A stretch of 64,000 bases of DNA, taken from IMG/VR virus record IMGVR_UViG_3300045988_059494, positions 7,219 through 71,218 of that record. The stretch is one strand, 5' to 3'. Origin of the DNA: a virus. The notes under the pieces are model-generated. The model searched no databases. It had not been told where the DNA came from and saw only the letters and a program-made list of their open reading frames with translations. Below, piece by piece: positions 5,674-63,313 of this stretch (position 1 is its first letter; each line of letters starts with the position of its first letter). The translations under genes were made by a program, and so were the position numbers.

Positions 5674-6820
5674 AGACTATCTTTTACTATTAGCTTTTAA
5701 CTAATAGGATACCATTTCGGTTTTCAGTTGCTTCGTTTCCTAAAACAACGCTACGTACCAATAGTAGCCCTACTCCCAGTCTAACCCGGGATAGTCGTTA
5801 CAGGTTTCTTAAAGGATAAACAAGGTTATTATCTTTGAATGACTCTCCAATATTTATTCTTCTAACAGTTTCTTTAGAAGAACCATATAAATCAATTATT
5901 TCTTGGTAGGTCATATCAGTATGAAGCAGCGCATCTTTTATCTTGTCTGCCCTTATCGCTCTAACGTCTCTTTTTCGAATGGGATAAGTTGGATATAATC
6001 CTTTTTTTAATGTTCCAGCATTTATTTTCTTTACTGTGGAATATCCCATATCAAGTTGTTTAGCAATTTCTGCTAAAGATAAAGTAGAATTCGTTAGTAG
6101 TTCAATTAATTCGTCATAATCTGAATCATTCTTGTAATATTTATAGAGAGGATAATTTTGATTTTTGTCATAGAAATACAATCCATTATTGATGCTTGAA
6201 ATAAATGAAGCACTAATATTATACTTCTATTCTAACTCATAATAAGGAATACCTTCCTAGATTTCTTTTTTCAAAGAAGCTATTTGATCTTGTGATAAAA
6301 TAGAATTTCTAATTCTACTACCACCGCCAAGATCAGAATTATATCCCTCTCCATCTCCTCTAAAACTATTCTTTTCTTTTATCCAAAACTGTTCTCTTTC
6401 ATTCACAATATTTATATCATCTGTATAAATCTATTCTAAAACTTCAATTTCAAAATTGTCTATACCATATTGACGCATTTTACTGTGAATTAAATCGTTA
6501 TAAGAACTAGATTTAGAGTTTAAAGCACAAGAACGATGTTCTCTTATACGACGTTTTAAATTATTTGTTTGGCCAACATATTTGTGACCATTTATCTTGT
6601 TTGTGTAACAATATATGTAATACATTATATACCTCCATAGCATAATGTATTACCATGTTATCCTTTAAGACTTCCCACGGGATTATCATGGCAACACAGT
6701 TAGGATACTTTTTATATCCTCTATGTTACTTTAGAATTCCCCGTTAGCAATTAACAATTTTTGTCCAAAATTTTTAATTACCCTCGTGGTAAGCGAGTAA
6801 AATATCTAGGGGCAAGCATT
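5660..6820 (-). mobile_element. candidate group I intron (or free-standing HEG insertion) interrupting dnaE, carrying a GIY-YIG ORF
   Basis: ~1.16 kb between DnaE halves. Putative 5' exon ends GGT AAG TAT (GKY) followed by intron G; putative 3' end ...AUAGUG before GGT AAA CAC. A junction GKY|GKHDS would restore the conserved DnaE motif. Confidence 0.35.
5798..6643 (-). CDS. GIY-YIG homing endonuclease with 3 in-frame TAG codons
   Basis: N-terminal YIYCYTNKINGHKYVGQTNNLKRRIREH (GIY-YIG), middle EQFWIKEKNSFRGDGEGYNSDLGGGS, C-terminal HTH region; track ORFs 6431..6643 and 5798..6181 are in frame, separated only by TAGs. Confidence 0.7.
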
Positions 6821-9334
6821 TCACCCCATCTGCGGACCGAGACCAAATTTCCAGACATACTTACCTAGCTTCTCGGATTTCGCCGTATCCAAAACTTTCT
6901 GATGAAGCTCTGGAATTTTATTCATCTGTTTCTTACCAACAATCTTTCTTGCGGCATTCGCTTCAGCCAGACTAAAGTTACAAATATCTGGATCCCGCAA
7001 CATTTTCATTAGCTGCTCCTGAGAAGGAGGCACACCATAAGAAGATAAAAAGTAAGGTTCCAAAGTTTTCTGTTCTTGTTTAGTCAAGCCATTATTGTCC
7101 ATCTCTTTATACCAAAGAGAAATATCATGCTTATAACGAACATACTTTTCCATCGGAGTTTCTGCGCCCGGTTCAGAAGCCATAAGACGCATCAAACCAT
7201 TGGCATCCGCCATCTCTAACGGGTTATGCGGACGAATTTTCTTAGCTGCCTGTGCGCCTACTGCGCTATCAAACTGAAAACAACCAATTACATCATTGTT
7301 AGCCAGAGCGTTCCACATAGCTTCATCATCTTGCGGCAGGATAGATGGATGTAGATACTTATTATAGACCTCTCTAAGAGTTAAGTTTTGCTCAATAACT
7401 TTATCTGCTTGAAGCAGTTCAATGGTCTGAATGATAATATCCTGTACACTTGTTAGCAGGAAGTCATACTTTACGGAACCTGCGGCCTCTTGGTCATGCA
7501 GATCCCACTGTGTAATTAACGCGCCCTTAGGAGTTCGCATAACCGCGGCAGAGTCATAGATGTTTTCATCAAAAAGGATAACGCCAGAAGCGTGACTACT
7601 TCTTTTATTAACCATGCCTTGAATACGAATAATAATATCAAGCAAGCCTTCATACTGCGAAACCGCGGTTACAAATGCTTTAACAGGCTTTCTGCCTTTC
7701 TCTTGATTACCATTTACAACATCTTCAATCGGCCACAGGAAACCGCGCTCTTGAGGAATCAAAGAACTCAAGTATTGTGCTTCATCAACATCAATACCGT
7801 CGGGATATTCCTCAGAACGATAACCTCTACACGCAGTCAAGATTGCAGATTTTGTACCCTCTGTACCGAAAGTGCAAACCTGAATAAGACCAAGTTCTCC
7901 TCTTTCCTTGCGGATTTCGGCAAAAATCTTCTGAATTTTAGACGGCGCCAAGTCAAGATCAATATCGCCTAACTCAACACGTTCATCGTTAATGTAACGC
8001 CAGAAAGGTAAGTCCCACTCGAGGGGATCAAGCTGAGTAATACCAAGGAGATAATGGTTTAAAGCTGCACACGCAGAACCACGACCTGCGCCGACTGTAC
8101 TGCCGCAATTCCAGAACAAATCTACATAGTGCTTCAATGTATTAGGATATGCGAACATACAAGTCTGCAATTTCTCGCCAATGACTCTCTTTACTCTTGC
8201 TTCTTCTTCGAGTCTTTCCCAATACTCTTTCTTGTGGATAAGACCTTTCTCCTGCATTGCAATGATGCACTCCTGAATCCAATATTTCTCTTGCTCGTTA
8301 TCAGATTCAATCAAGGAAGTTAGTACCTTATAATCATCACGGAAAGTATCCATCATATCCGCGGGAACGCGAGACCAGTCGCTGCAATTATAATGAGTTA
8401 CTGCTACTTCTGGGACAGACTGATGCTTCTCAAGAGAATAAAACTCAATCTTATCCTTGATCTCATTAGAATTGTCATAGATAGAGTAAACTGTATCTAA
8501 GTCAAAGCTAGACAAAAGTAAATCAGTTGTCTCTTGTTCAGTCATAAGATATGTGAATTCATAGAATGAATCAACTTCTCGCTCACCACCCTTAGAATTA
8601 AGATAAGACTTGTGAACATATCTATCTTCTTTAGTTAGATAATGAGCATCCGTACCAACGCACATCTTTACATCAAATACTTGGGCAATTTTGAGCATTC
8701 TCTTGTTTGCAGTAACCTGATCACTGTTGCTTGCAGGAGCACACTCAACATAGAAGTTATCCTTGCCAAAAACGCTAATACAAAATTCCATAAAGTCAAT
8801 AATCTGTCTATGGTAACGATACGCATTATCAGTATCATTAGCTTTTTCGCAAGCATCGAGGTTAAGAATAGAATTACCTAATTCACCACCAATACACGCA
8901 GTCGTGCCGATAATGTCTCCCTTAAATCTCTGCATAACTTCCTGTAATTCTGATTTCAAAAGCGGGACTCGTTCCATACCACGATCATAGTAACTATTAG
9001 TCCACGCAATAGAAGACAGCTCTTTAAGACCTCTGTATCCATGCTCATTCTTTGCAAGCAAAATAAAATGATAATACTTTTGTCCCATATCTCGAGTATC
9101 GGTAAGATAAATCTCATTACCCAATGCTACAGTAAACTCAGGATGAGTTTCCTGAAGTTTCTTTGCATACTTATTTACTCGCATATGTGAACTTAAGGAT
9201 TCGTGATCTGTGATGGCAATACCAGTCAAACCAAGCTCAATAGCCTTATCAATTAGCTCTTCTGGATGATTGATACAATCGAGAAGGCGCAAATTACTAT
9301 ACTCAGTATGAGCATGGTTGTTAAAATAACTCAT
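6821..9334 (-). CDS. dnaE: DNA polymerase III alpha (DnaE) N-terminal portion: PHP domain plus polymerase core
   Basis: N-terminal PHP motif HAHTEYSNLRLLD...GIAITDHESL; 837 aa; ends within the conserved GKYGFNKSH-like motif. Confidence 0.8.
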   Translation of the reverse strand: MSYFNNHAHTEYSNLRLLDCINHPEELIDKAIELGLTGIAITDHESLSSHMRVNKYAKKLQETHPEFTVALGNEIYLTDTRDMGQKYYHFILLAKNEHGYRGLKELSSIAWTNSYYDRGMERVPLLKSELQEVMQRFKGDIIGTTACIGGELGNSILNLDACEKANDTDNAYRYHRQIIDFMEFCISVFGKDNFYVECAPASNSDQVTANKRMLKIAQVFDVKMCVGTDAHYLTKEDRYVHKSYLNSKGGEREVDSFYEFTYLMTEQETTDLLLSSFDLDTVYSIYDNSNEIKDKIEFYSLEKHQSVPEVAVTHYNCSDWSRVPADMMDTFRDDYKVLTSLIESDNEQEKYWIQECIIAMQEKGLIHKKEYWERLEEEARVKRVIGEKLQTCMFAYPNTLKHYVDLFWNCGSTVGAGRGSACAALNHYLLGITQLDPLEWDLPFWRYINDERVELGDIDLDLAPSKIQKIFAEIRKERGELGLIQVCTFGTEGTKSAILTACRGYRSEEYPDGIDVDEAQYLSSLIPQERGFLWPIEDVVNGNQEKGRKPVKAFVTAVSQYEGLLDIIIRIQGMVNKRSSHASGVILFDENIYDSAAVMRTPKGALITQWDLHDQEAAGSVKYDFLLTSVQDIIIQTIELLQADKVIEQNLTLREVYNKYLHPSILPQDDEAMWNALANNDVIGCFQFDSAVGAQAAKKIRPHNPLEMADANGLMRLMASEPGAETPMEKYVRYKHDISLWYKEMDNNGLTKQEQKTLEPYFLSSYGVPPSQEQLMKMLRDPDICNFSLAEANAARKIVGKKQMNKIPELHQKVLDTAKSEKLGKYVWKFGLGPQMG

Positions 9335-9351
9335 ACACTTCCTCCTTTAAT

Positions 9352-9392
9352 CTTTCTATAATAATTATATCATATTTTATAATAAAAAGCAA
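9352..9392 (-). promoter_or_regulatory. conserved AT-rich promoter block upstream of dnaE
   Basis: tctataataattatatcatattttataataaaaag on plus strand = TATAAT-containing motif on the coding strand; member of the repeated family. Confidence 0.4.
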
Positions 9393-9396
9393 TTCA

Positions 9397-10558
9397 TCAA
9401 TCTTTCAACACCAAAGTTAATTTCTGCGCCGCACGAGTACAAGCTGTGTAAAGCCACCGAGCATGATCTGCTTGTCTTAATACTTCCTCGACTACTAATA
9501 CCTTATCATACTCGCTACCTTGGGATTTATGAGTCGTGATACAATAGCCATAGTCAAATTGCTCCGGTCGCAACTGCTTAGGAAACAGTCGAAAGTTTTC
9601 TCGATTTACTGTTGTTTCTTTGGTGGTAATAAGTTTCCAATCCATCAAGAGGTCATGAAATGTCTGATCTCTCTTATCAGCATTATCAATCGTCTCAGGG
9701 GTAAAATCAATTAAACACATAGGATTAAGCCACTTATTTGGGACGGTAGCAATCTTATCAATAGTACCAATAGTGCCATTGACGAGAGCGTCTCCAGTCT
9801 CAGTAATCTTATCCCAGTTGTTTTTAAGACAAATAACTTTATCTCCAACAATAGGATTAGGAATGTCTTCACCATAGCGCATATTGCGGTAATAATTATT
9901 TAATGTATGACGAGTAATATTTTTCCCGCAAAGAATCTGATCTGCCCATGTAAACATACCGTCACACATCTCTCTATGACGCACAATATTGATTTCAGTG
10001 CCTTTATAAGGCTTGATAAGTTTACCTTCTCGAATATCTGCGGACAGACGAATAATCTCGCTTTCTGCAGCCTGGCGCATAATTTCATCGAGGAAGATGT
10101 GCGGACGTTCAAGAATGCCATTTTCTTCGCCAATAGGCGGTAACTGACCGGGATCGCCGCAAGCAATTACATAAATGCCATGCGACAGCAGCAAATTCCA
10201 CATAGGCTTAGGTAGCATAGATACCTCGTCAACTACGATAATATCATAATCAGAAATATTATCTTTAGGGATATGAATAAAGCTGCCATCTGCGCGCGGA
10301 ACAGATTTATACAAGAGTCTATGTGCAGTCATAGCAGTGGGACAACCCTTATTTCTTAGTACCTGTGCAGCTTTGCCGGTATAAGCGATATATCCAACTC
10401 TTTCGGGATCAATATCGAGAGCGGAGATAATAAACTTGATAAGAGTAGATTTACCTGTTCCTGCTTTCAGGCGTAGCCAGCGATCACGGTATAATTTTCG
10501 TTTGCGTGATATCTGGCTACAGCAATTTTCAAACCCTCTTCTTGTTTTTTAGTTAATT
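9397..10558 (-). CDS. RecD/Dda-like superfamily 1 helicase; needs -1 frameshift or ~8 nt hop at GCC TGA just before Walker A
   Basis: ATG at 10556-10558 gives MELTKKQEEGLKIAVARYHANENYTVIAGYA then TGA. The Walker A (AGTGKSTLIKF) and the rest of the helicase (track ORF 9397..10332) are in the -1 frame, with no start codon of their own. Confidence 0.55.
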
Positions 10559-11088
10559 CCATCGGGTTTTACTTCCTCCTTTTCTTTTAAATTTAATTCA
10601 TCTATTGTCCACATATTATCATGCAATTCTTTATGACAATTAGAACATAATAATATACATTTTTTACTTTCTTCAACTGCTTCTTGCAACTTAAAGTGGT
10701 CATTACTTATAGTAAAATCCTTTTGTGATGGGTCTAAATGATGAAATTCTAATGCTTTTAGGCATTTACTATAGCCGCATCTTACACATTGACCTCCGCG
10801 TTGCTATTTTATTTTAGACAGAAAGGCCCCTCTTGTTAGCTAAATTCCTTCTGACATACAGTCATAACAACAACTTCTCTAATTAGCCGCAGCACTTTTA
10901 GGGGTGAAAGTTTTTCCACATATAGGGCATTTTTTTTCTTTCAGACCCGAGGCTCCTGTAATTTTTCTCTCTTGATTACGTTGCTTTCTAGCTTGATACA
11001 TACAAGCATCACTACAATATTTTTTTGTGGATTTTATAGCTTCAAACTCTTTTCCACAAACTGTGCATATATTTGTCATAAAAATCAT
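10549..11088 (-). CDS. HNH homing endonuclease with 3 in-frame TAG codons
   Basis: C-terminal CGYSKCLKALEFHHLDPSQKDF...LLCSNCHKELH (HNH); track ORF 10879..11088 ends at TAG and the frame continues; paralog of 53357..53896 with a TAG at the aligned position. Confidence 0.65.
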
Positions 11089-11123
11089 TCCTTCTATATA
11101 TAGTAACTTATCAGATTCTATAA

Positions 11124-11261
11124 TATATAGAAATATATGTAGATAAATTTACTTGATTTGTCCAAGGGTTTTATCAAACTGCGTACCACTAATTACAGTA
11201 TATGCTTCTCCGTTATGGTATCTATCAACGGCAATCTTGAGTCCTTCCTCTTGTTTACGTG
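11124..11261 (-). pseudogene. diverged duplicate of the helicase N-terminus (46 codons), truncated exactly before the Walker A position
   Basis: MELTRKQEEGLKIAVDRYHNGEAYTVISG... ~75% identical in protein to the 10558 copy but divergent in DNA; flanks the HNH gene. Confidence 0.4.
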
Positions 11262-11464
11262 TTAGTTCCATTTTCCTTCTCCTTAATTGCTGCATCTACT
11301 TTAGCTTTTAAATTATATAAATGCTCCAATCCCACATCATAAAGTAATCTGGTATCCATCGGCAATGTAATCAAATCGCCATTTAGTTCATGTGAGAGTT
11401 GCTTATGTAGTTGTGCCATTTCTGAAATATTCATGCTAGTTAAATCTACATATAAAATATTCAT
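11255..11464 (-). CDS. hypothetical protein (69 aa)
   Basis: ORF track only; overlaps the helicase-fragment copy in another frame. Confidence 0.3.
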   Translation of the reverse strand: MNILYVDLTSMNISEMAQLHKQLSHELNGDLITLPMDTRLLYDVGLEHLYNLKAKVDAAIKEKENGTNT

Positions 11465-11558
11465 ACCGCTTTTCCTTTCAAAAAATAGTAAACCCTATTT
11501 TGGTTTCTGCGGACGACCGTCTAGGTGCCGGGCCAGTCCGCAGTTTCCATCAATCTAT

Positions 11559-13142
11559 TTAAAAGAAATACTCTTGACGATTTATGATTTCATAGTTCTG
11601 AATAATTAGCTGTGGTGTCACGCTATTGAAATACTTGTTTACCTCCGCCTTGCCAACGAGATTAATTGTAACACAACCATTCTCGCTAAACAAACTTTCT
11701 AGTTCTTCTTCGCTAGACTTAAACTTGATACAGGTTACTCCATTAGATAACTGTATCTTTAAAGTGGGATTTCGATCTCTAGACATTAAGGTAATCATAT
11801 CTTTAGTGATAGATAAATGTTCTACCGCGATAAGCGGCTCATCTACATTCTGTCCCCAAAGATTCTTCATATTACCCAGCTCTAAGATTTCTTTAGGTCT
11901 AATATCATTGGCTGAATGAATAAAGTCTACCTTGTAGCTAGGTGAGAACTCAATATCTTTAAGAGTTGTATCTGCGTACTCAACAAAAGCATCAAAATTT
12001 TCATCTAAGATACCAAAGCCAAACGCATTAGGATGTCCTTCCGCGAGATAGATTAAACCGCTGTCTCGGCAGAAACCTCTAAAATCATTGAGTTTAGATT
12101 TCTCATATCCTCGTGCAGAGCCACTCCAAGCCTTTTTACCATCTTCATCTACTTCAACAAGTAGAGCAACAGGACGTTGGTATTCTGCCATTAACTTGTT
12201 GGCAATTAGACCGGTAATACCTCTATCAAAAGATGGATGTTCTAACTTAACAAGTAAGATTTTATGATCTAAAAGATTATTTTCTTTGATAATACTTTTA
12301 ACCTGTTCAACTGCGGCATCTTGGTTCCTAGTCTGGCGGTTTTTAACATTAGTGCAAGTCCGCAAACTTTGGTCTAATCTTGTCTCTTGCTGGCCAGCGC
12401 ATCCTCGTTTAGTAGAGGGCACCAGATCAAAGGCTTTCCAATTCAACATAGATTCGAATAATAAAGTCTTTTCTTCTAACGTGCCTACTCGCGTAATCGA
12501 GTTAATTAAAGGAACAATGTAGAACGCTACGCCTATTGGAGTGGGATTGTCACCTAATTGATAATGGTTTTTTTCTGCCATACCCTTGATAAAAGGATTT
12601 TGAAGCTGACTTAAACCAGTTTGAACAAGATAATGGGTTTCAAAATCTCGCAAATCCATCATATCTCCAACAAGACCAACTGCAACCATATCTAAGAACT
12701 GATCTGCCTTTTGTTCACTGGTTGGAAGTAAAGAATCAATAAACTGGCATAACTTATACACAACACCAACACCAGATAATGACTTAGTTGGATAATCACA
12801 TAACTGATTATTTACAATACACGCATATTCAGAAATCTTTTCTGCTTGGTGGTGATCCAGTACAAGAACTTCAACTCCTTTATTATGCAACATCTTATGA
12901 ATATCATAATCATTTGAACTCGAGTCTGGAGCAATTACCAGTGTTGTTTCTGGTGGAATAAGAGCTGGATTAATTCCGTGCATTTTGCCATTATGGAAAC
13001 TATAAGAGATATGCTCAATAGCAGATGGAATAATTGCATGAATGTAATTCAATAGTAAGGCTGCTGAAGTATAGCCATCGCAATCACTATCTACTTGCAC
13101 ATGAATATGGAAACCATCTTTATGTAACTGGTTAAACAGCAT
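11559..13142 (-). CDS. RecJ-like DHH-family single-strand DNA exonuclease
   Basis: DHH motifs HVQVDSDCDGYTSAA, DHH-like HHQ, GGGH-like region; 527 aa. Confidence 0.65.
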   Translation of the reverse strand: MLFNQLHKDGFHIHVQVDSDCDGYTSAALLLNYIHAIIPSAIEHISYSFHNGKMHGINPALIPPETTLVIAPDSSSNDYDIHKMLHNKGVEVLVLDHHQAEKISEYACIVNNQLCDYPTKSLSGVGVVYKLCQFIDSLLPTSEQKADQFLDMVAVGLVGDMMDLRDFETHYLVQTGLSQLQNPFIKGMAEKNHYQLGDNPTPIGVAFYIVPLINSITRVGTLEEKTLLFESMLNWKAFDLVPSTKRGCAGQQETRLDQSLRTCTNVKNRQTRNQDAAVEQVKSIIKENNLLDHKILLVKLEHPSFDRGITGLIANKLMAEYQRPVALLVEVDEDGKKAWSGSARGYEKSKLNDFRGFCRDSGLIYLAEGHPNAFGFGILDENFDAFVEYADTTLKDIEFSPSYKVDFIHSANDIRPKEILELGNMKNLWGQNVDEPLIAVEHLSITKDMITLMSRDRNPTLKIQLSNGVTCIKFKSSEEELESLFSENGCVTINLVGKAEVNKYFNSVTPQLIIQNYEIINRQEYFF

Positions 13143-13318
13143 CTTAGCGGCTTGTTCTATATTATCTAATAGCAGTGGAGATAAGTTATCTTCCTCTGTT
13201 ACATTAAGATAATGAGCGATGTCTTCAAACTTAATACCTCGATTAGTAAGAACCTATTCAATCGCTGAATAGTTTTCTTGAATAGGTTTGATTAACTGAT
13301 AATCCATGATTAACCTCC

Positions 13319-14589: not shown

Positions 14590-14598
14590 TTTCTCTCC

Positions 14599-54596: not shown

Positions 54597-54640
54597 AAAT
54601 TTTTCATTTATTGCTTTCATTGTAAATAATCCAGGACTGC

Positions 54641-55093: not shown

Positions 55094-55111
55094 ATTTCTC
55101 GTCTAATTTGT

Positions 55112-55205
55112 TGGCGGAGGGCGAGAGACTCGAACTCTCACGCCGTTGTTCACGGTTACTAGCGGTTTTCAGGACCGCTCCCTTGCCAATTAGGGTTAGC
55201 CCTCC
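55112..55205 (-). tRNA. tRNA-Ser(UGA), type II
   Basis: Acceptor GGAGGGC/GCCCTCC, anticodon loop CCUGAAA, long variable arm, G73, CCA. Confidence 0.65.
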
Positions 55206-55242
55206 GTATAGAGCAGTTTTATATCCTGCTCAGGATAGCAGC

Positions 55243-55575
55243 TTATGTAGTTTCAAGGAACTCTTGTTCAGCTTCCATAACTTCACGCAGTTCATGCGCA
55301 GCCTTATTCTCATAATCAGCCATATCAGAATAATGAGCAACCGCATCATCATAAATGCGTCTAGCCTCAAGTTTCTTCGCCGTTGCGCGCTTCATACGCT
55401 TGCGGGCAATCTTTTCCGCACACCGCAGAGCAGCAATCTGCTTACCCTTCTCCAGTGAAAACTCGTCATCTGCATGGCATACTGCAACGCCTCGCACTAC
55501 TCTGCCTGCGTAGGTGGAAACCGCAATTACACGAGAACCATTGGTATAAAACTTGTACTTCTCAATCGGATACAT
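55243..55575 (-). CDS. hypothetical protein; paralog of the N-terminal domain of 30593..31102
   Basis: ORF track; shared motif. Confidence 0.3.
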   Translation of the reverse strand: MYPIEKYKFYTNGSRVIAVSTYAGRVVRGVAVCHADDEFSLEKGKQIAALRCAEKIARKRMKRATAKKLEARRIYDDAVAHYSDMADYENKAAHELREVMEAEQEFLETT

Positions 55576-55726
55576 AACTTGTAACTCCTTTTCTCATTTA
55601 CTATATATATTATATAATAAAATTTCATATATGTCAAAGATCATCTAAGCTAGCTTAGTATCGACCCTTATCATATTTCCTTTTGTTTATATACATATAA
55701 TACAATAATTTTTGAGAAAAATAAAA

Positions 55727-55758
55727 AATAGGATAAAGCCTAATGGCTTTATCCTATT
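55727..55758. terminator. hairpin terminator
   Basis: AATAGGATAAAGCCtaatGGCTTTATCCTATT. Confidence 0.55.
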
Positions 55759-56213
55759 AAATCAGAGAAATTGCCCCAAGCAACAGATGCAGTAGGAGAA
55801 CCCCACGATCCATCACCTTTAAGGTACTTATCAGTATCTCCTGCTTGAGGTGCTGGTACTAAACCTCTCGTGCCCGCGGCCGTAGAGGAAGCCCCAGTCA
55901 TAGTATCTACATTGTTTTGAACTACTGTCCAGTCACTTGCTTTATAGCTAGAGCTATAATCACTGATACATATAATCATATCACCTATTTCAAGTTTGCC
56001 CAAAGAAGCAATCTCGAAAGAAGCATTAGCTTTATATGTCCAACCAATTTTGTAGTTCTTTAGACCAGTAAGATCGGCAGCACTAGAGACGACACCTTTA
56101 AAGACTAGAGAAGAAGAAACCGCGGTTTGCAATGCATTGACCGCGGCTCTTGCTTCTTCATCTTTAAGGGAGTAAATGGTACTGCCGAGTTTAATTTTGG
56201 AAATATCCGCCAT
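55749..56213 (-). CDS. tail-fibre-like protein (short)
   Basis: N-terminal ADISKIKLGSTIYSLKDEEARAAVNALQ motif shared with the 56266 gene. Confidence 0.4.
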   Translation of the reverse strand: MADISKIKLGSTIYSLKDEEARAAVNALQTAVSSSLVFKGVVSSAADLTGLKNYKIGWTYKANASFEIASLGKLEIGDMIICISDYSSSYKASDWTVVQNNVDTMTGASSTAAGTRGLVPAPQAGDTDKYLKGDGSWGSPTASVAWGNFSDLIG

Positions 56214-56265
56214 TTACTCACCATCCTTTATTTTCATAAACGAGTTTTAGCTCGCTAGTGCTAAA

Positions 56266-57486
56266 TTACTTAACAGTAACTTCCTTAGAGGTAACTACTA
56301 CGTCGTCAACATCAAGTTCAACAGCACCGCCGGTAAACTTGGTCTTGTCAGTATCTACGCCAGCCTTATCGTAAGATACGCCGGTAACAACCTGAGTCTT
56401 AGTGCCTGCGAAAGTAGCATTAACATCGACTTCATTACCAGCAAAGGTAGCTGCAAATTTATCGCCAGTAAATACTGGAGCTGTAGCAGTAGCGCTAGTA
56501 ATACCAGTTACAACATCGGTTGCAGTTTCAGCGAGTTCTGGAAGAGCACCTGCATCAAATGCACCTTCTGTGTAAGAAGCCTTTGCACCCTGAACGAAAG
56601 TAGGAAGTGCGTTCGCAGTAAAGCTAAAACTTAAAGTCTCAGTGGTATCATCAACGTTAGCGCTCCAAGTAGCCTGAGAACCTTGAGTAAAAGTATCATC
56701 GCCGTTGGTAACAAAAGTATCCTTAGCCTTAGACGGCAGAGAACCAACAGAAGTTACCTTTTTAATGCTATCCTTAGCTGGGGTTACGGTTACGTTTGGT
56801 GCAGACACAGAACCGGAAATTTGAACACCGTTTTCAGCATCCTTAGCAATACTAACAGTACCAGCAGCAGTTGTAGTACCGGTTACAGTACCTGCTGGAG
56901 TATAATCACTCTTGGTTAGAGTAGCATCAGTTGCGGTCTGAGTAAGACCAACCTCAATAGAACCTGCGGCATTACCCTTAGCCTTCAGACCGATAATAAT
57001 CTGGCCAGCTACGGTACCAGTAGCGGAATCCTTCTTAGATAGAGCACCAAGACCCATATCCGCAGCAAGGGTATCAAGGTTAATATTAGCAGACAGATTC
57101 TGAGTACCAATGGTAACAGTCTTTAAAGCATAAATGCTCTCATCGCCAAGCTCATGCCATGTAGCCGGCTCACCGCCATATACATACTCCTTAACACCAA
57201 TGATGATTACATCACCAGCAACCGGATTGGTAATGTCAGCAAAAGCACTAACAACACCACGGAAGTGCATAGAACCTGCAATACCGGCAATAGCGGCCTG
57301 AACCTGAGCGCCAGTTACAAGACCTTGCTCCTTAGCACTAACGCCAGCCGCAACGTCCTTCTTAGCAGCATTACCAAGAGTAGCAAGAAGCTCACGAGCC
57401 TCAGCATCCTTTAGATAATAAGTCTGATCTCCAATAGTTAGTTTGGAAACAACAGGAACATTCTTAGGATCAAAAATAGCAGCCAT
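56266..57486 (-). CDS. tail fibre / structural protein (Gly-Ala-Thr-Val rich)
   Basis: 406 aa, low-complexity beta-rich composition; N-terminal KLTIGDQTYYLKDAEARELLATL motif; SD AGGAGG. Confidence 0.5.
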   Translation of the reverse strand: MAAIFDPKNVPVVSKLTIGDQTYYLKDAEARELLATLGNAAKKDVAAGVSAKEQGLVTGAQVQAAIAGIAGSMHFRGVVSAFADITNPVAGDVIIIGVKEYVYGGEPATWHELGDESIYALKTVTIGTQNLSANINLDTLAADMGLGALSKKDSATGTVAGQIIIGLKAKGNAAGSIEVGLTQTATDATLTKSDYTPAGTVTGTTTAAGTVSIAKDAENGVQISGSVSAPNVTVTPAKDSIKKVTSVGSLPSKAKDTFVTNGDDTFTQGSQATWSANVDDTTETLSFSFTANALPTFVQGAKASYTEGAFDAGALPELAETATDVVTGITSATATAPVFTGDKFAATFAGNEVDVNATFAGTKTQVVTGVSYDKAGVDTDKTKFTGGAVELDVDDVVVTSKEVTVK

Positions 57487-57508
57487 AAATTAATTTCCTC
57501 CTATAAGA

Positions 57509-58021
57509 TTATTTGAAGATAGCTGTTTCATCTTCTAAATTAACTGTAGCGCCAACTTTGGCGTTCAGTACATCTGTAATCGCTTTTTGCGTCATGGTAC
57601 CATCGGTATTTTCTCCACTGCCAGAGTAAAGTTTCATAACACCTGCGGTTTCCGCGGACGCTACGGGAAGCGAACCCGGTCCAATACCAACAAACTCAAC
57701 ACCATTATAATAATATAAAGCATTTGAATTATTGGCATCAATATAAATTTTATTTTCATTAGGAGTGATTTCTTGAGTGCCATCAACATCTTTGAAAATC
57801 TTTTCACCAATGAAATAAGCGCGTTGGAAGATAGTATTCTCATACTCAAGACTTCCATAAGTTGACACGCCATCGCCAACAATCACGCAAAGGCCTTGCT
57901 TAGCAGTATCTACTAAACAAATTTCGCCCTTTTCGGGAATAAAACTATCCTTTACCTTCTCGTAATTGTAATCATTATCACGGCGCATCTTTAAGACAAT
58001 CTAAATTGTTTTAACAGCCAT
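57509..58021 (-). CDS. fibre-like structural protein with in-frame TAG at codon 7
   Basis: SD AGGAGGTTAAGGCATATG; MAVKTI-TAG-IVLKMRRDNDYNYEKVKD...; track ORF 57509..57988 is the post-TAG part. Confidence 0.45.
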
Positions 58022-58026
58022 ATGCC

Positions 58027-58242
58027 TTAACCTCCTATTGTTATAGGAGCGCCGCCGGCGTCCAAAATGATTGTATCAGTATCCTCAATCGCGGGAGAAG
58101 TGATCTATACTCGAGTACTGTTATCAGTATCCAAGAAAATCAGACGATTACCCTCATCTGTCGTGAAAATCAACTAGCCCTCTTTAATCGGGATGCTATC
58201 GAGATTGGCAAAAGAACCTTTAAGAACTACTAAATCAGCCAT
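58027..58242 (-). CDS. fibre-motif minigene with 2 in-frame TAG codons
   Basis: SD GAGGAGGGATTTATAAGAATG; MADLVVLKGSFANLDSIPIKEG-TAG-LIFTTDEGNRLIFLDTDNSTRV-TAG-ITSPAIEDTDTIILDAGGAPITIGG. Confidence 0.4.
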
Positions 58243-58374
58243 TCTTATAAATCCCTCCTCTCACATAGATATAAAAATTGTAGCAAGTCATTTTCCCATA
58301 TTTGGCCCGAAAAATTCTAAAGCCACTTTGCATTTGCACCGAGCGCGGTCCGATGCCCACATATATGCAACAAA

Positions 58375-58403
58375 AAACCCTGTCATTATATAATAATGAC
58401 AGG
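58375..58403. terminator. hairpin terminator
   Basis: ACCCTGTCATTATataATAATGACAGGGT. Confidence 0.55.
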
Positions 58404-58415
58404 GTTTATATTTAC

Positions 58416-59528
58416 TTACACACCAAACTTGTTAATCATCAAGTCGTTTACCTTAGTAAGTGTGAGAGAAAGAACGGAGGTGGAATTGAGCCACTGTTTC
58501 TTAGCAATCTCTGCATCGTCGTCTGGCAGCTCATCAAAAGCATCCCACGGCAACGATAATGCGACCTTATCAGGATCAACACAAAGCACGCCATTCTCAG
58601 CAACGACATCCTTCACATCGAATTTAACGTGGTAGCAGAACTCTTTATTGTAAAATTCACAATATACCCATCCCGCAGAATACAGGTTAACTCTGTAACT
58701 ATATTTGGTATTAGTCCAACCATTAGAAAGTCTAACGGTAATATCATAAGCGACATCACGCTCATAATTGATATTCAGATCCATGAGAGTTTCCTCGAGA
58801 GGGTATCCCTGCTTAAGATCAAAAGCAATAGCCCGCAAACAGTCGAAAGTGATATTCGACATCTGAGACAGCTTAATAATCTTATCAATCTCGTCGTCCC
58901 AGCCAGTGCCGAGCTTATCAGTCATGTAAGCACGAATTTCCTCAGGTGCAGGACAAGTAATCTCGAAATGATAATGGAAACGACCAGGTCTATTAACAAG
59001 AAACTCATTGAGGTCACGCGGATCGTTGCAGGTGATAACGAACAATTTCTTGCCATTATCAATACCGTCAAATAGACTAAGCATTTCTATCTGCGGATCA
59101 CCGTCATCTGTCTTGCGGAAAGTCTTTTCGAACTCGTCGAAAATGATTGTTACCTCTTGCTGAATAGAGCTAAGAAAATTGCTGATACCGGGCACAGCCG
59201 CATCAACAATAATAACAGGCATATCATTTTCAATAGATTTGCTAGCAATCATTCGAGCGAGCAAAGACTTACCAATACCCTTCTTACCAGAAAGAATAAC
59301 ACCAAAGTTTCTTTCGCTAATCTGAAACGATTTAAGGATTTTATCTGCCTTGCGGGCATGGTCGCCATAAATCGTGCCCTCATTGATTACAAGGTCATCA
59401 TGCTTGGTAAGCCAAAAACCCATCTGCGGATGGAAACCGACTGTGTAGGTTGCAGCAGGTAATTCTTTGTATGTCTGAACATCTTCGCCATATACCTGAT
59501 AGCGAGAACCTGCATTTACAATATTCAT
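58416..59528 (-). CDS. AAA-family ATPase
   Basis: Walker A GKKGIGKS, Walker B IIFDEFE; 370 aa. Confidence 0.55.
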   Translation of the reverse strand: MNIVNAGSRYQVYGEDVQTYKELPAATYTVGFHPQMGFWLTKHDDLVINEGTIYGDHARKADKILKSFQISERNFGVILSGKKGIGKSLLARMIASKSIENDMPVIIVDAAVPGISNFLSSIQQEVTIIFDEFEKTFRKTDDGDPQIEMLSLFDGIDNGKKLFVITCNDPRDLNEFLVNRPGRFHYHFEITCPAPEEIRAYMTDKLGTGWDDEIDKIIKLSQMSNITFDCLRAIAFDLKQGYPLEETLMDLNINYERDVAYDITVRLSNGWTNTKYSYRVNLYSAGWVYCEFYNKEFCYHVKFDVKDVVAENGVLCVDPDKVALSLPWDAFDELPDDDAEIAKKQWLNSTSVLSLTLTKVNDLMINKFGV

Positions 59529-59552
59529 ACTCTACTTCCTTTCAAATGTATA

Positions 59553-59626
59553 TGGTGCGGGGCCGCGGATTCGAACCGCTTTTTCAGCCTTTTAACGCTG
59601 ATGGTCTACTTATAGCCTAGCCCCGC
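59553..59626 (-). tRNA. atypical tRNA-like gene with an apparent 8-nt anticodon loop (GUUAAAAG); anticodon unresolved (UAA, AAA or quadruplet)
   Basis: Acceptor GCGGGGC/GCCCCGC, T-loop GGTTCGAATCC, A73, CCA; anticodon stem UCAGC/GCUGA encloses 8 nt; weak D-stem. Confidence 0.4.
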
Positions 59627-59629
59627 GTA

Positions 59630-59706
59630 TGGTGGTTCTTCAGAGGCTCGAACTCTGGATCGTCCCGTTATGAGCGGGATGCTGTGACCAACTCAGCTAA
59701 AGAACC
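59630..59706 (-). tRNA. tRNA-Met(CAU) (or Ile-lysidine type)
   Basis: Acceptor GGTTCTT/AAGAACC, D-stem GCTG/CAGC, anticodon loop CUCAUAA, CCA. Confidence 0.65.
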
Positions 59707-59752
59707 ATATGACGGCATTAAAGCCGCCAGGAGTCCGTAAAGAAGGAGAAAA

Positions 59753-59826
59753 TGGCACCGGTTGGTAGAATTGAACTACCGTCAGAGGAGTCAGAATCCT
59801 CTGTACTACCATTATACTAAACCGGT
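59753..59826 (-). tRNA. tRNA-Gln(CUG)
   Basis: Acceptor ACCGGTT/AACCGGT, anticodon stem GAGGA/TCCTC with loop UUCUGAC, T-arm GGTAG/CTACC, G73, CCA. Confidence 0.6.
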
Positions 59827-59830
59827 AAAT

Positions 59831-59916
59831 TGGTGCCGCCAGCGGGACTCGAACCCGCACGGTTCTACACCGGGGGATTTTAAGTCCCCTGTGTCTACCA
59901 GTTCCACCATGGCGGC
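59831..59916 (-). tRNA. tRNA-Leu(UAA), type II
   Basis: Acceptor GCCGCCA/TGGCGGC, anticodon loop CUUAAAA, long variable arm, A73, CCA. Confidence 0.65.
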
Positions 59917-59924
59917 ATACTTTC

Positions 59925-60278
59925 TTATTCATAACCTACTGCATCATACATTGGAGCATAACTTTTCACATGACGATGAGTAATAACTCCAATACAAGTT
60001 TCTTTGTCATCTACTTCTTTAATGTAAATAGAAGCCTGATCACTTGTGATTGCGGCACGACCTCGTGGATTTGTTACACGCTTCGCGCACTCTTCGACGT
60101 GCTTCATATCAATAGTATTGATCTCAATACGCTTGTTTCTACCAATGATTACAAAAATAGGTTTATTATTTACTAACAAAGGCTTTGTATCAATGATCCG
60201 TCCGCACCATCTAATTGAATATTCTTCGTGAACATCTGTAACAATCAGATGGGTCTTAATCATAACATCTTCTGTCAT
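59925..60278 (-). CDS. hypothetical protein (117 aa)
   Basis: ORF track. Confidence 0.3.
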   Translation of the reverse strand: MTEDVMIKTHLIVTDVHEEYSIRWCGRIIDTKPLLVNNKPIFVIIGRNKRIEINTIDMKHVEECAKRVTNPRGRAAITSDQASIYIKEVDDKETCIGVITHRHVKSYAPMYDAVGYE

Positions 60279-60538
60279 GCTTTTAACCTCGCAAAGAAAG
60301 CTAATACATCATCATCTGCTTGAACTTCTACAATATCCTCTGAACGAGGTGCTGGAGTTGATTGATGGAATGGGTGTTGCTCCTTCCAACAATCTAAGAA
60401 ATGTTTCTTGATGTAGCTCTCCGAACTGAAAGCCTTATGACAAGTTGGACAAATATACATATCTCTCTTCCTCTTAACAAATATCATCCATTGTTGGGTC
60501 ACTAATTTCAATACCTGCGAAGATTTCGCAATCATCAT
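60275..60538 (-). CDS. small C2H2/C2HC-like zinc-finger protein
   Basis: YICPTCHKAFSSESYIKKHFLDCWKEQH. Confidence 0.35.
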   Translation of the reverse strand: MMIAKSSQVLKLVTQQWMIFVKRKRDMYICPTCHKAFSSESYIKKHFLDCWKEQHPFHQSTPAPRSEDIVEVQADDDVLAFFARLKA

Positions 60539-60918
60539 AGGTCATATTCCGCATAAACTCAATCTCGATTGCTTCTCGCTCGAGAGTTTCAATATCCTCT
60601 TGATATTCATAAATCATGTTCATGATATTGTGAATAGCGCCAAACACTTCATCGAAATTATCCACGGTAATGTTAATTCCTTTTGCAATCTCGATTTGTT
60701 GCTGTAGACGAGCAATCTCTTTATGAGCAGAAGTCTTGCTTTCCCGCAATTTGCTTGCTATTGATTCAAGCTGTTCTTGACTAAATCTCCTAATCTTTTC
60801 ATAAGGAGCTTCTGCAATATCATAAACATGAGTATTACGAGAGTAATTTGCGAGAGGAATAAAATCCTCATTGTGACGAACAAAGAAGTTAAGATATTGT
60901 GACATATACATTCTCCTC
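60474..60918 (-). CDS. hypothetical protein
   Basis: Probable start MYMSQYLNFF with SD AGAGGAG; the upstream part of track ORF 60474..61115 overlaps tRNA genes and is spurious. Confidence 0.35.
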
Positions 60919-60927
60919 TCTTTCGTG

Positions 60928-61042
60928 TGGTTGGAAGCACAGGATTCGAACCTGTATCTCGCGTCCCATACGATAAAATTGCTGTTACAGCCTATTACTA
61001 GGCTAAATCTTACGCGCGTGCTGTCTCTTACACTAACTTCCA
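60928..61042 (-). tRNA. tRNA-like gene with ~40-nt insertion in the anticodon-loop region (possible intron-containing tRNA or pseudo-tRNA)
   Basis: Canonical T-arm ACAGGTTCGAATCCTGT, acceptor TGGAAGT/GCTTCCA, A73, CCA, D-arm GTG..CAC. The putative anticodon stem CGCGT/ACGCG encloses 47 nt that include a hairpin AGCCTAgtaaTAGGCT. Confidence 0.3.
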
Positions 61043-61044
61043 AA

Positions 61045-61120
61045 TGGCTGGGATGGTGAGACTCGAACTCACGAATTCCGGGGTCAAAGCCCGTTGCCTT
61101 ACCGCTTGGCGACACCCCAA
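61045..61120 (-). tRNA. tRNA-Gln(UUG)
   Basis: Acceptor TGGGGTG/CATCCCA (one G-U), D-stem GCC/GGC, anticodon loop CUUUGAC, G73, CCA. Confidence 0.55.
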
Positions 61121-61322
61121 TATTTACAAGACGCTAACGGGCATAACCAATTCCTTTTCGTCCTTTTGTCGGTTCCCCATATGCTCACTGTCCAAAAGAA
61201 CTAGGTTTCTTAAGACCGTGGTCTTAAAACCATAAATATCTCTTATATTTATTCAAATTAGTAGCACAAAAGTTTGCTGATATAGCGTCTTAATCCACGA
61301 TTTGTGGTTGACCTTGCCGGCC

Positions 61323-61360
61323 TATATAAATATTATATCATAATATTTATTATTTTTCAA
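61323..61360 (-). promoter_or_regulatory. palindromic promoter variant upstream of the tRNA unit
   Basis: cctatataaatattatatcataatatttattattttt; near-identical to the 54561 and 62419 copies. Confidence 0.5.
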
Positions 61361-61599
61361 ATCAAGACCCACGGAAACTCAAGCTAATTACTCCATATCT
61401 CCCACTTGTTTCCGTCTTAAAGAGATATATCATAGTCTGGAGGTAATACACTTACCAATAAACATTCTTGTATTCAAGTAAATAGAAGAATTTGCTGTAT
61501 GGGTCTTTTCCATAACATAGGAAAGGAGTGATACATAACCCCATTTAATGGGGAAGTGGCCGTAACTATAAGGGATAACCTTATCTAAGCTCTGGCAAG

Positions 61600-62223
61600 T
61601 TACGAGGTTTCACCGTATTTCCATTTGTATCCATAAGCAGTTTTTCGTTTGCCATTGCATACAGCAGCTATATGCCCTGAATGTTGTTTGCCCAAACGAT
61701 CATAAGCAGCTTTAATTGAAGGGAAAATATTCAAAATTTGATTGGTATTTTTATCTATCTGTATAACAGGCTTAATAATACCTAAACGACTTTTAATACT
61801 TCGCTCTTCTTTGGAAATACCATATTGATTTAACACCTTTGAACAAGTGTCCGTAGAATAATTCAAAATTTTTGCAACTTCTTTAATATTTAATCCTTCT
61901 TTATATAAAGAATATATTAAATCATAGTCACAATATCTCTTTCCATCGCCGCCAAGGGTTGCATTATATCCATTCTTGAAAGAACGTTTTTGTTCAATCC
62001 AATAAACTTCTCGTTCTTCTGGATTATCCGTTTCTTCAATTAGCTCAATATGGAAATGTTCAACCCCATATTTCCGCATAGCAGAATATAATGGACGCTT
62101 TTCGTTACGCTCTTTGAAAGCATCTCGACAATGTTCCTTAAAGCGTTTCTCGATAGAGAATTCAGTTTTACCGACATAAATTTTACCATTTATGTCATTA
62201 GTGATCTAATAGATGTATGCCAT
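61600..62223 (-). CDS. GIY-YIG homing endonuclease with in-frame TAG at codon 6
   Basis: SD AAAGGAG; MAYIY-TAG-ITNDINGKIYVGKTEFSIEKRFKEHCRDA...RKYGVEHFHIELIEE...YWIEQKRSFKNGYNATLGG; track ORF 61600..62079 is the post-TAG part from an internal Met. Confidence 0.65.
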
Positions 62224-62306
62224 AACTAAATGACTCCTTTCTTTTTATTTTGATATAATTAGCATTACCCGTCTTTTACCGCGTGGAGGTTTATATCACA
62301 AAAGAC

Positions 62307-62378
62307 TCGGAGTGACAGGATTCGAACCTGCGACCTCGATACCCCAAATATCGCCGTCTACCGCTGACTTACACCCCG
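62307..62378 (-). tRNA. tRNA-Pro(UGG), CCA not encoded
   Basis: Acceptor CGGGGTG/CACTCCG (one G-U), anticodon stem CGATA/TATCG with loop UUUGGGG, T-loop GGTTCGAATCC. Confidence 0.55.
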
Positions 62379-62418
62379 TTATAAAGACACATATTGTAAT
62401 ATGTGTCTTTCCTTATCT

Positions 62419-62450
62419 TGTATAAATATTATATCATAATATTTATACAA
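62419..62450 (-). promoter_or_regulatory. palindromic promoter variant upstream of tRNA-Pro
   Basis: tataaatattatatcataatatttatacaaaat. Confidence 0.5.
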
Positions 62451-62452
62451 AA

Positions 62453-63313
62453 TCAAATTGTTGTAACAAAAGCATTATATCCCTTGTTAGCTAGATCATG
62501 AACTACTCTTGCTGCGTTAGTCTTCACAGAAAACGCACCAACTTGTACCTTCCAATAGCTACCAACCTTGCGGACATAAGCGTTTTTATATCCTGCATTG
62601 ATTGTGTCTGGAAGAGCTTTAATCTTAGCCAAAAATGCGTTTGCATTAGCTTTCTTGCTAAATGCGCCAAGCTATACTCTATAAATAACTTTTGGCTTTA
62701 AATAAACAGCCATTACATTATCAACAGGACGATTAGTAAATGCTTTTGTGATACACTTACCATCGTGTAATACCTTGGTACTTCCACCTCCATCAAGGTT
62801 AATAGCATAATCAACCTTGAGAGTCTGCAAGAAAGATTGCATTTGCGAGAAGTTCATACCTGGAGATTCAATAGCTACAATAAAGATATTCTCTTTATTA
62901 TAAGCTAAAATAGTTCTTCTAGCTTTGTAGTTAATCTCAGAAGCAATAGTAATAGGAACTGCGGCGCCGGCCTTAATCAAAACTGGATAGCCACTTACGA
63001 AGTCTTCAAACTTCTCTTGACCAATTACACCGTATCTTAGCTCTCCATTTATAGTTCCAAATCCTTCTCTGTAAGAAGAATTAGAGCTAATGATTTTTCC
63101 TTCATCAGAATAATTCAAGATAGTTGAACCATTGCTCATGTTAAAGAAACCACCATTTGAAATAATAGAAGGCTTAACAGCGCAGCTATCATAATAGGCT
63201 TTCAAAGTCTAACGAGGCTATTGACATAATGCCATATCAAACTTTGAAATCTCTGTCTTAGGGATTTCTACAACAGTGATATAAGAATAGTTAGTTGGAT
63301 TATAAATCTTCAT
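62453..63313 (-). CDS. cell-wall-associated protein: phosphodiester-glycosidase-like (NAGPA, NLDGGGST) domain plus C-terminal SPOR domain; 3 in-frame TAG codons
   Basis: SD AAGGTGA; MKIYNPTNYSY...ALCQ-TAG-PR-TAG-TLKAYYDSC... (track ORF 62672..63205), then ...VIYRV-TAG-LGAFSKKANANAFLAKIKALPDTINAGYKNAYVRKVGSYWKVQVGAFSVKTNAARVVHDLANKGYNAFVTTI-TGA (SPOR). Confidence 0.5.

Follow-up and report, generated by a model that had tools for sequence, protein, structure and literature searches.

Probable reading of TAG as glutamine, with uneven use across gene classes, in a 145-kb gut phage that carries its own amber suppressor tRNA

The stretch of DNA analysed here (the window, 64 kb) belongs to IMG/VR virus record IMGVR_UViG_3300045988_059494 and is part of a phage genome of about 145 kb from a gut metagenome (ENA contig ERZ27261405 k119_87904, 144,639 bp, matched by exact protein identity; window coordinate + 58,352 = coordinate on the ENA contig). 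With flanking DNA of 9 kb below the low end (L001) and 5.5 kb past the high end (L007), about 78 kb were readable, and sibling contigs from other samples as well as public gene calls with Pfam matches for the whole window were used for comparison. The G+C content of the window is about 0.39, and all called genes lie on the minus strand except a plus-strand pair at 45890-46422. A replication, nucleotide and nicotinamide adenine dinucleotide (NAD) metabolism block (Table 1) encodes NrdD/NrdG, guanylate kinase, DnaE, a PIF1-like helicase, a RecJ-like exonuclease and DnaB; YorF and YorH family proteins, AAA_24, ligase, gyrase A and B, RNase H, PhoH and Band_7; and NAMPT, PRPP synthase, nicotinamidase, NAD synthase, a Thg1-like protein and RNA ligase, after which the tRNA array follows. 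The window also holds genes whose reading frames contain TAG codons, and it is these codons, together with the phage's amber suppressor tRNA, that are the subject of this study.

We conclude that the phage very probably reads TAG as glutamine (Gln; genetic code 15) with a suppressor tRNA of its own, so that only TAA and TGA terminate. When genes were called with these two codons as the only stops and cross-checked against the public calls, 85 minus-strand genes comprising 18,954 codons were obtained, of which 67 end in TAA, 18 in TGA and none in TAG; likewise, none of the 25 genes in the flanks ends in TAG. The preliminary description of this DNA, which had proposed the recoding, named TAG as a stop of late genes as the observation that would speak against it, and no such stop occurs among these window and flank genes. 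Its count of at least 17 genes intact only if TAG is sense agrees with ours: 17 genes contain 45 in-frame TAGs, 16 of them on the minus strand (44 TAGs) and one on the plus strand (46165-46422), including the 13 TAGs already described for 20188-21099. No in-frame TAA or TGA occurs in any of the 17, all of which terminate at TAA or TGA, as had been stated. Off-frame stop triplets in the coding genes occur as TAA:TAG:TGA = 1380:566:1404, and therefore the chance that 44 of 44 interruptions are TAG is about 0.17^44; because TAG makes up only about one sixth of off-frame stops, decay or chance is untenable as the source of 45 TAGs without a single TAA or TGA. For one frame of 303 codons, the probability of containing no TAA or TGA is about 9e-11. 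Only two of the 58 standard-code open reading frames (ORFs) of at least 100 amino acids end in TAG, both being pieces of TAG-containing genes, and the cover of the minus strand by ORFs of at least 100 codons rises from 80% in the standard code to 89% with TAG as sense.

The proteins themselves support the same conclusion. As the preliminary description had claimed, conserved domains run across TAGs: Pfam and PHROG matches to GIY-YIG (5798-6625, 20188-21099, 43750-44499 and 61600-62223), HNH_2, NAGPA, SPOR and phrog_6721 all do so, and TAG sites are shared with independent assemblies from other samples. The claim of good ribosome-binding sites (RBSs) holds for most of the set, with a clear GGAGG, GAGG or AGGAG in 14 of the 17 genes, and fails for 20188-21099 and 27869-28213. 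The gene list itself had to be adjusted. The ORF at 27869-28213, with five TAGs, is additional to those described earlier. Extending 51817-53304 (DUF2828/DUF7788) upstream across a TAG to 53421 was not adopted, since public calls and domain limits do not require it, and this gene probably begins downstream of that TAG; the ORF at 30321-30515 was dropped as a TAG gene on the same grounds. Three classical GIY-YIG genes plus the transmembrane (TM) and coiled-coil one were found instead of the four plus one first reported, and the labels 'ThyX-like', 'MuF-like' and 'fibre-motif' received no support from Pfam, at E up to 5, or from PHROGs.

Table 1. Features of the window and its high-side flank. 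Positions are window coordinates unless the flank contig L007 is named.
Feature	Coordinates	Strand	Length	In-frame TAG	Evidence and remarks
tRNA-CUA amber suppressor	L007 2999-3089 = window-equivalent 66440-66530	-			ARAGORN; same contig, 2.4 kb past window end
In-window part of phage tRNA array	53980..63696	-			12 tRNA genes; ARAGORN and Rfam
TAG-poor replication, nucleotide and NAD metabolism block	944..48503	-			Public gene calls and Pfam
Intron-like insertion splitting dnaE	5641..6824	-	1.18 kb		Sibling alignment breaks at 6825 and 5640
ORF	322..957	-	211 aa	942, 903	Full-length public call; both TAGs kept in 5 sibling contigs; earlier label 'MuF-like' without Pfam or PHROG match
GIY-YIG homing endonuclease gene inside dnaE	5798..6625	-		6433, 6259, 6229	Pfam GIY-YIG E=2e-11, residues 1-87; TAG at codon 65 inside this span
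HNH endonuclease gene within PIF1-like helicase gene	10549..11079 (10549-11088 in the domain search)	-		10881, 10842, 10806	Pfam HNH_2 and zinc-finger matches cross TAGs; two TAGs are CAG in sibling L003
RecJ-like exonuclease	11559..13307	-	582 aa	13256 (codon 18)	DHH, DHHA1 and RecJ_OB domains
phrog_6721 protein	19245..19883	-	212 aa	19784	PHROG E=2e-54, residues 2-210, across TAG; no Pfam match to ThyX
P-loop protein	19886..20188	-	100 aa	20125	GAGKT motif; TAG kept in sibling L017
TM, coiled-coil and C-terminal GIY-YIG protein	20188..21099	-	303 aa	13 TAGs	GIY-YIG at residues 211-292 crosses 3 TAGs; one TAG is CAG in L017
Small membrane protein, putative holin	27869..28213	-	114 aa	5 TAGs, including TAGTAGTAG	Two predicted TM spans; all TAGs kept in L017
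GIY-YIG endonuclease gene	43750..44499	-	249 aa	44403, 44088, 43974	GGAGG RBS; Pfam GIY-YIG E=4e-4, just under cut-off
ORF	46165..46422	+	85 aa	46246	Public call; AAGGAG RBS; no Pfam/PHROG match
Zinc-ribbon minigene	49385..49486	-	33 aa	49483, 49429	TAGs kept in L008, L009
Zinc-ribbon minigene	49756..49911	-	51 aa	49833	Public call; GGAGG RBS
HNH-type endonuclease gene	53357..53896	-	179 aa	53737, 53569	Public call at 179 aa; gene missing from sibling L009
ORF	57509..58021	-	170 aa	58003 (codon 7)	Public call; GGAGG RBS; no Pfam/PHROG match
ORF	58027..58242	-	71 aa	58176, 58107	Public call; TAGs kept in L008-L010; no family match
GIY-YIG and NUMOD1 homing endonuclease gene	61600..62223	-		62208 (codon 6, within GIY motif)	Pfam GIY-YIG E=3e-12, residues 1-87, plus NUMOD1
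NAGPA and SPOR cell-wall enzyme, endolysin-like	62453..63313	-		63220, 63211, 62674	Pfam NAGPA 3e-18, SPOR 7e-14, both domains downstream of TAGs; PHROG endolysin families match SPOR part

The use of TAG differs widely between gene classes. Expressed as the TAG share, TAG/(TAG+CAA+CAG), it amounts to 0.26 in five homing endonuclease genes, 0.48 in the TM-coiled-coil-GIY-YIG gene (the most TAG-laden of the window), 0.31 in three lysis-like genes (NAGPA-SPOR, Amidase_2-SLH and the putative holin) and 0.16 in four unannotated ORFs that had been labelled virion-like, as against 0.011 (6/524 Gln-type codons) in the other 72 genes, most of which lie in the replication/metabolism block. Compared with those 72 genes, Fisher tests give p = 1.5e-19 for the endonucleases together with the TM-GIY gene and 4e-10 for the lysis-like genes together with the unannotated ORFs. 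Thus, TAG is indeed concentrated in a subset of genes, as first described, and next to none of it falls in the replication/metabolism block. The accompanying statement that replication genes use the standard code is too strong: they can be read in either code, and RecJ, 19245-19883 and 19886-20188 carry TAG, as do the two zinc-ribbon minigenes among the 72. The low-side flank is TAG-rich, with six and four TAGs in two small genes, four in a resolvase gene, six in a 407-aa gene and two in that of a Big_3 protein; therefore, the code appears to be genome-wide and the window to cover a TAG-poor block. While the structural module lies beyond the available DNA, the readable part combines strong depletion in replication and metabolism with enrichment in nuclease and lysis-like genes.

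Glutamine is well supported by sequence comparison as the amino acid for which TAG stands. In the NAGPA-SPOR protein, the TAG at 62674 lies within the SPOR motif YRV-x-LGAF at the place of the glutamine of the Bacillus subtilis CwlC SPOR domain (solved structure 1x60), and the second SPOR repeat of the same phage protein reads KVQVGAF at the corresponding motif. Two distant homologues whose gene lacks in-frame TAG (contigs L020 and L022) have CAA, GAA and CAG, at the DNA level, at the three TAG positions; on one of these contigs, TAG ends one of 21 genes. Across 27 homologues, the TAG columns of this protein are invariant or at least 90% Gln. TAG sites in the sibling contigs read TAG 60 times and CAG three times, with no other codon, and both TAGs of the minigene at 49385-49486 align with Gln (CAR) in its paralogue at 49756-49911. 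Homologues of the RecJ-like exonuclease read EQVL at its TAG site. Three protein families together offer 17 TAG columns, and the pooled BLOSUM fit to these was 57 for Gln, 28 for Glu and 5.6 for Ser. With TAG as Gln, the predicted peptides spanning TAG sites include VIYRVQLGAFSK, ALCQQPR and EQVLTNR, and the corresponding NAGPA-SPOR site is VIYRV-X-LGAFSK.

A tRNA able to read TAG was sought, as the preliminary description had proposed, and is present on the same contig (Table 1). None of the 12 window tRNAs found by ARAGORN has a CUA anticodon, and the low-side flanks (L001-L005) contain no tRNA at all. The suppressor tRNA folds into a cloverleaf and scores 51.4 bits against the Rfam tRNA model. 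It is 91 nt long, with a variable arm of about 20 nt that includes a 4-bp hairpin, a 4-bp D-stem and otherwise class I-like features; at its identity positions it has a U1*C72 mismatch, G73, G10 and U35. By the identity rules for Escherichia coli glutaminyl-tRNA synthetase (GlnRS), U35, G73 and the openable 1:72 pair would suit a glutamine acceptor, but the long arm would not. A sigma-70-type match (11/12, extended -10; L007 2877-2905) lies on the gene strand 94 nt upstream of the suppressor. Of the other decoding factors that had been suggested, a release factor RF2 or a synthetase, there was no trace: between window coordinates -9056 and 69528, a span of about 78 kb out of 145, no called gene matches a Pfam family of release factors or aminoacyl-tRNA synthetases.

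This long-arm architecture recurs in other phages. The gut phage phAss-1 (OQ749652), compared below, has a homologue at 62445-62532 in tandem with a conventional CUA tRNA of 72-75 nt, and an exact-pattern scan found the type in 22 IMG/VR contigs (L024-L045) of 52-197 kb. Comparison of 13 distinct sequences shows covariation in the acceptor and D stems and a variable-arm stem that is kept through UA-to-CG changes; every one of them has A-U, U-A or a mismatch at 1:72, and G73 is invariant. Pairwise comparison of the suppressor with 187 phage tRNAs did not discriminate its isotype; tRNA-Leu(UAA) was marginally closest, but the suppressor has G73 whereas the phage's own tRNA-Leu genes have A73. 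No mention of long-variable-arm phage suppressor tRNAs was found in the searchable literature, which is not proof of novelty. We put forward only tentatively that long-variable-arm CUA tRNAs of about 90 nt, with a class I-type D-arm, G73, a weak or mismatched 1:72 pair and an extra hairpin of 4-5 bp, make up a previously unremarked family, conserved in a broad clade of gut phages of 52-197 kb that includes phAss-1. The extra arm might serve a function of its own: to keep the wrong synthetases away, to shield the tRNA against anticodon nucleases of the host, or to permit a non-standard route of charging where the host has no GlnRS. In that case, glutamine would reach UAG on a type of tRNA that is not known for this amino acid. 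Of the whole case, this family is the one item that may be new, and it offers a concrete object for studying how stop-codon tRNAs are charged with glutamine.

The surroundings of the suppressor gene hold several further features. Other 11/12 sigma-70 extended -10 matches lie, likewise on the gene strand, at L007 749-777 and 8169-8197, and one of the three is about 210 nt upstream of tRNA-Gln(UUG). A search for HDV-like (hepatitis delta virus-like) and theta ribozymes adjoining the suppressor tRNA gave none; a sub-threshold twister-P1 match (31 bits, E=5e-4, gathering score 67) is located at L007 4353-4410 (~65119-65176), just upstream of tRNA-Ser(GCU). The tRNA-like gene at 59553-59626 has an 8-nt anticodon loop, GUUAAAAG, for which ARAGORN gives the anticodon 'taaa', and scores 31.3 bits in Rfam, barely above the threshold. 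Siblings L008, L010 and L011 have exactly the same anticodon arm, and the gene could be a quadruplet-reading or a degenerate tRNA. Another tRNA-like gene, at L007 4747-4821 (~64708-64782; Rfam 43.7 bits), has a 6-nt anticodon loop and no CCA.

How these elements might work together can be outlined as follows. The phage brings its own CUA amber suppressor in its tRNA array; a host enzyme would presumably charge it with glutamine, and the charged suppressor would then out-compete host release factor 1 at UAG. The replication, nucleotide and NAD genes, being nearly TAG-free, might be kept readable in either code for the time before the suppressor accumulates. Genes that would be useless or harmful if expressed early carry 1-13 TAGs, and these (the homing endonucleases, the membrane-anchored GIY-YIG nuclease, the NAGPA-SPOR enzyme, the putative holin and small ORFs) would yield full-length product only once suppression is efficient. 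Among mostly co-directional genes, TAG marks nucleases, wall-degrading enzymes and membrane proteins amid TAG-free neighbours, a layout that one would expect of recoding that works as a translational gate. That the TAG skew is such a temporal gate is, judged from the codon distribution, a proposal to which we give even odds.

Several observations weigh against glutamine decoding or against a late onset of suppression. Canonical tRNA-Gln has a variable loop of only 4-5 nt, and the ~20-nt arm of the suppressor is unlike any of them; because the arm is atypical and G73 is also common to tRNA-Ser, the amino acid cannot be told from the tRNA alone. When Gln residues are removed from the alignments, Glu and Lys fit the TAG columns slightly better than Gln, although these three remain the best fits and Glu and Lys are the usual substitutes for Gln. 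The Gln counts are also inflated, since many database homologues were translated with TAG = Q. The remaining genome may still encode a release factor, a synthetase or additional suppressors. As for timing, homology of RecJ to phAss-1 continues upstream of the TAG, and the same codon is also TAG in phAss-1 (35% identity); because this TAG occurs at one codon in two lineages, suppression may already act when replication genes are made. The consensus-type promoter match just upstream of the suppressor tRNA would allow early expression, so that expression of the suppressor, which had been placed late in infection, need not be late.

The alternative that deserves most weight is that the uneven use of TAG is historical rather than regulatory: replication genes would derive from standard-code ancestors, and mobile or accessory genes would have drifted to TAG for longer or under weaker selection. 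We think this rather unlikely, yet it would accommodate the shared RecJ codon and the host-type promoter match at the suppressor. It also agrees with the inclusion, among the most TAG-rich genes, of mobile insertions that are present in some siblings and missing in others, and with the fact that the sole polymorphism at TAG sites is the single transition between TAG and CAG. However, the odds ratio between gene classes within this one genome is 44-fold, which is large for drift alone, and lysis-like genes are enriched here as in unrelated recoded phages. Moreover, the TM-coiled-coil-GIY-YIG gene, which is conserved and not mobile, is heavily recoded in two lineages: its syntenic homologue in phAss-1 (63008-63900) has about 8-9 TAGs, largely at other positions, and this difference in position suggests recurrent enrichment. 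In phAss-1, this gene lies about 400 nt from two suppressor tRNA genes, with one small ORF between.

A further alternative is that TAG stands for another amino acid, for example serine, or that decoding is mixed, should more suppressors exist elsewhere in the genome. The suppressor, at 91 nt, has its long variable arm and G73 in common with tRNA-Ser; TAG columns 61, 255 and 277 of the GIY-YIG family are often Ser in homologues, and phAss-1 has three different CUA tRNAs. We nevertheless regard it as very unlikely. The D-arm of the suppressor, with its 4-bp stem and small loop, is presumably unlike that of class II tRNAs. One TAG stands on an invariant SPOR glutamine and others at positions of the NAGPA N-terminus that are at least 90% Gln, with DNA-level support from standard-code homologues; sibling variants are CAG only, and the BLOSUM fit of serine falls far behind that of glutamine. 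In addition, tRNAscan-SE called the phAss-1 suppressor a tRNA-Gln (Babkin et al., PMC10607447).

A still smaller chance is left to a host that itself reads TAG as sense or has strong amber read-through, with the phage mirroring its code. The nearest matches in bacterial genomes are on contigs of Clostridia metagenome-assembled genomes (MAGs) that may be phage, which leaves room for such a host; but the phage's own CUA tRNA would then be unnecessary, the TAG-free early block is what one would predict for a standard-code host, and in a relative, L020, which stems from an NCBI genome assembly, TAG serves as a stop and does not occur in frame. That the interrupted frames are decaying pseudogenes or assembly artefacts, with TAG an ordinary stop, we practically dismiss: homing endonuclease genes do often decay, and 27869-28213 lacks an RBS and a family match, but all 45 of 45 interruptions are TAG where off-frame triplets would give a ratio of about 1:5, independent assemblies from other samples show these TAGs again, domains continue across them, no gene ends in TAG and the cognate suppressor tRNA is present.

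Some of the TAG-bearing genes merit further description. The GIY-YIG gene at 5798-6625 sits in the dnaE insertion and is missing from siblings L002-L005, which have an intact DnaE of 1296 aa. Joining ...ATGGGGT directly to ATAGTTTT, across an insertion that ends in AAACACG, restores the MGYSFSV of the intact gene; U before the 5' site, G as the last base and an exact in-frame exon junction are as in group I introns. No Rfam Intron_gpI match was found in the dnaE insertion at the gathering score or at E up to 1, a weak negative because the 828-nt ORF inside may defeat the model; permissive thresholds gave none in the helicase insertion either, and distant blastn found no relative of the 5' part of the dnaE insertion among deposited phages. 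The PIF1-like helicase gene (9397-11271) is broken after codon 29 by the HNH gene; it is intact in L002 and L004 (385 aa), and L003 and L005 share the interrupted layout. Past the HNH gene, helicase codons 1-31 occur a second time, in diverged form and with an RBS of their own; this copy is broken by an 8-nt insertion (TGAAAGCA) whose in-frame TGA falls shortly ahead of the Walker A motif. At the boundary of the first copy, the window is one T short relative to L003. The HNH-type gene at 53357-53896 is a paralogue of the one in the helicase gene by its CxxC...FHHLDP...CxxCH motifs. The small membrane protein gene at 27869-28213, with three consecutive TAG codons near its 3' end, sits between the Amidase_2-SLH gene (28194-28937) and a strong hairpin with a T-run, and may encode a holin; having no public call, no Pfam or PHROG family match and no RBS, it is the weakest of the TAG set.

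An AAA_33 kinase-like gene (33407-33925), the Thg1-like 3'-5' polymerase gene (35163-36005) and the RNA ligase gene (42519-43784) resemble, taken together, a set for the repair of tRNA. Among them, the Thg1-like enzyme deserves attention alongside a suppressor tRNA whose first base pair is mismatched.

Judged by its genes, the window is part of an SPbeta/EF1-like, siphophage-type genome. The best phage matches of DnaE, at 40% identity, are in Enterococcus phage EF1 and SPbeta-like Bacillus phages; a nucleotide search with 10 kb of the window gave no match among 50,697 phage records, and the edge ORF at 63697-63960 has no exact-protein record. Near-identical contigs of 141-148 kb number in the hundreds in public assemblies, and standard-code gene calling, which breaks 17 genes in the window alone, would mis-annotate an abundant gut phage. 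A first scan of genome collections was empty, and a second returned mostly SPOR-domain matches in Clostridia plus three full-length matches on MAG contigs, so that the host is probably a member of the Clostridia; those MAG contigs may themselves be phage. Against the deposited phage collection, the NAGPA-SPOR protein gave SPOR-domain matches only. Beyond the low end, an opposite-strand cluster at L001 14101-18402 comprises an M78 peptidase-like gene, the resolvase gene (143 aa, 4 TAGs) and DUF4376. This cluster may be a lysogeny or inversion module, and because of that, as well as of the SPbeta/EF1-like lineage, the label 'lytic' given to the phage at first may not strictly apply.

Phage recoding of this type has already been described, and the present finding is a clean case that is ordinary for the field. 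The translation of TAG-containing phage genes was reportedly addressed by metaproteomics by Peters and colleagues in 2022. NCBI taxonomy has a 'Caudoviricetes code 15 clade', and Borges et al. (10.1101/2021.08.26.457843) described phages of Firmicutes and Bacteroidetes that read TAG as Gln and carry suppressor tRNAs, and in which structural and lysis genes are recoded, replication genes variably so, and an intron endonuclease in an early gene preferentially. As in those phages, TAG stands for Gln here, the phage carries a CUA tRNA, TAG is depleted as a stop, replication genes are compatible with the standard code, and both lysis genes and an endonuclease insert in an early gene are recoded. 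Unlike in those phages, most TAGs of the window belong to nuclease genes and small accessory ORFs that are scattered through the replication block, and do not cluster in a single structural/lysis module. In addition, the 78 kb showed neither a release factor nor a synthetase, and that paper does not mention a suppressor tRNA with a long variable arm.

With canonical tRNA-Gln and supE-type amber suppressors, the phage tRNA shares CUA with U35, G73, G10 and a weak or mismatched 1:72 pair, and it differs from them by its long variable arm with a hairpin of 4-5 bp. With the SPbeta/EF1-like siphophages, the phage shares the DnaE-type polymerase (yorL-like), YorF, YorH and DnaB, and in phage EF1 dnaE is also split by a homing endonuclease; however, these phages use the standard code, whereas this one reads TAG as sense. 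For EF1 itself, Babkin et al. (2023; PMC10607447) found no stop-codon recoding.

The closest recoded phage is described in that same paper: phAss-1, a 136-kb EF1-related gut phage in which 41 ORFs contain TAG and three tRNAs have the anticodon CUA. With phAss-1 and its proposed genus Phassvirus (133-138 kb; 2-3 CUA tRNAs), the present phage shares TAG-to-Gln recoding, NrdD/NrdG, NAD-salvage genes and EF1 kinship, and about 25 window genes have phAss-1 homologues at 24-49% amino-acid identity. The two also have in common the TAG codon of RecJ, the long-arm suppressor tRNA and the syntenic, heavily recoded TM-coiled-coil-GIY-YIG gene. Unlike phAss-1, the present phage has a genome of about 145 kb and one suppressor seen in ~78 kb, as against three, and its Thg1-like, RNA ligase and NAGPA-SPOR genes have no phAss-1 match. 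Membership of Phassvirus rests on nucleotide identity of about 80% or more plus synteny, and megablast gave no match in a collection containing OQ749652; because of this and the low protein identity, the phage is not in that genus and is related to it at a higher rank only. The set of code-15 phages thereby gains, beside Phassvirus, a second and deeply diverged EF1/SPbeta-like branch.

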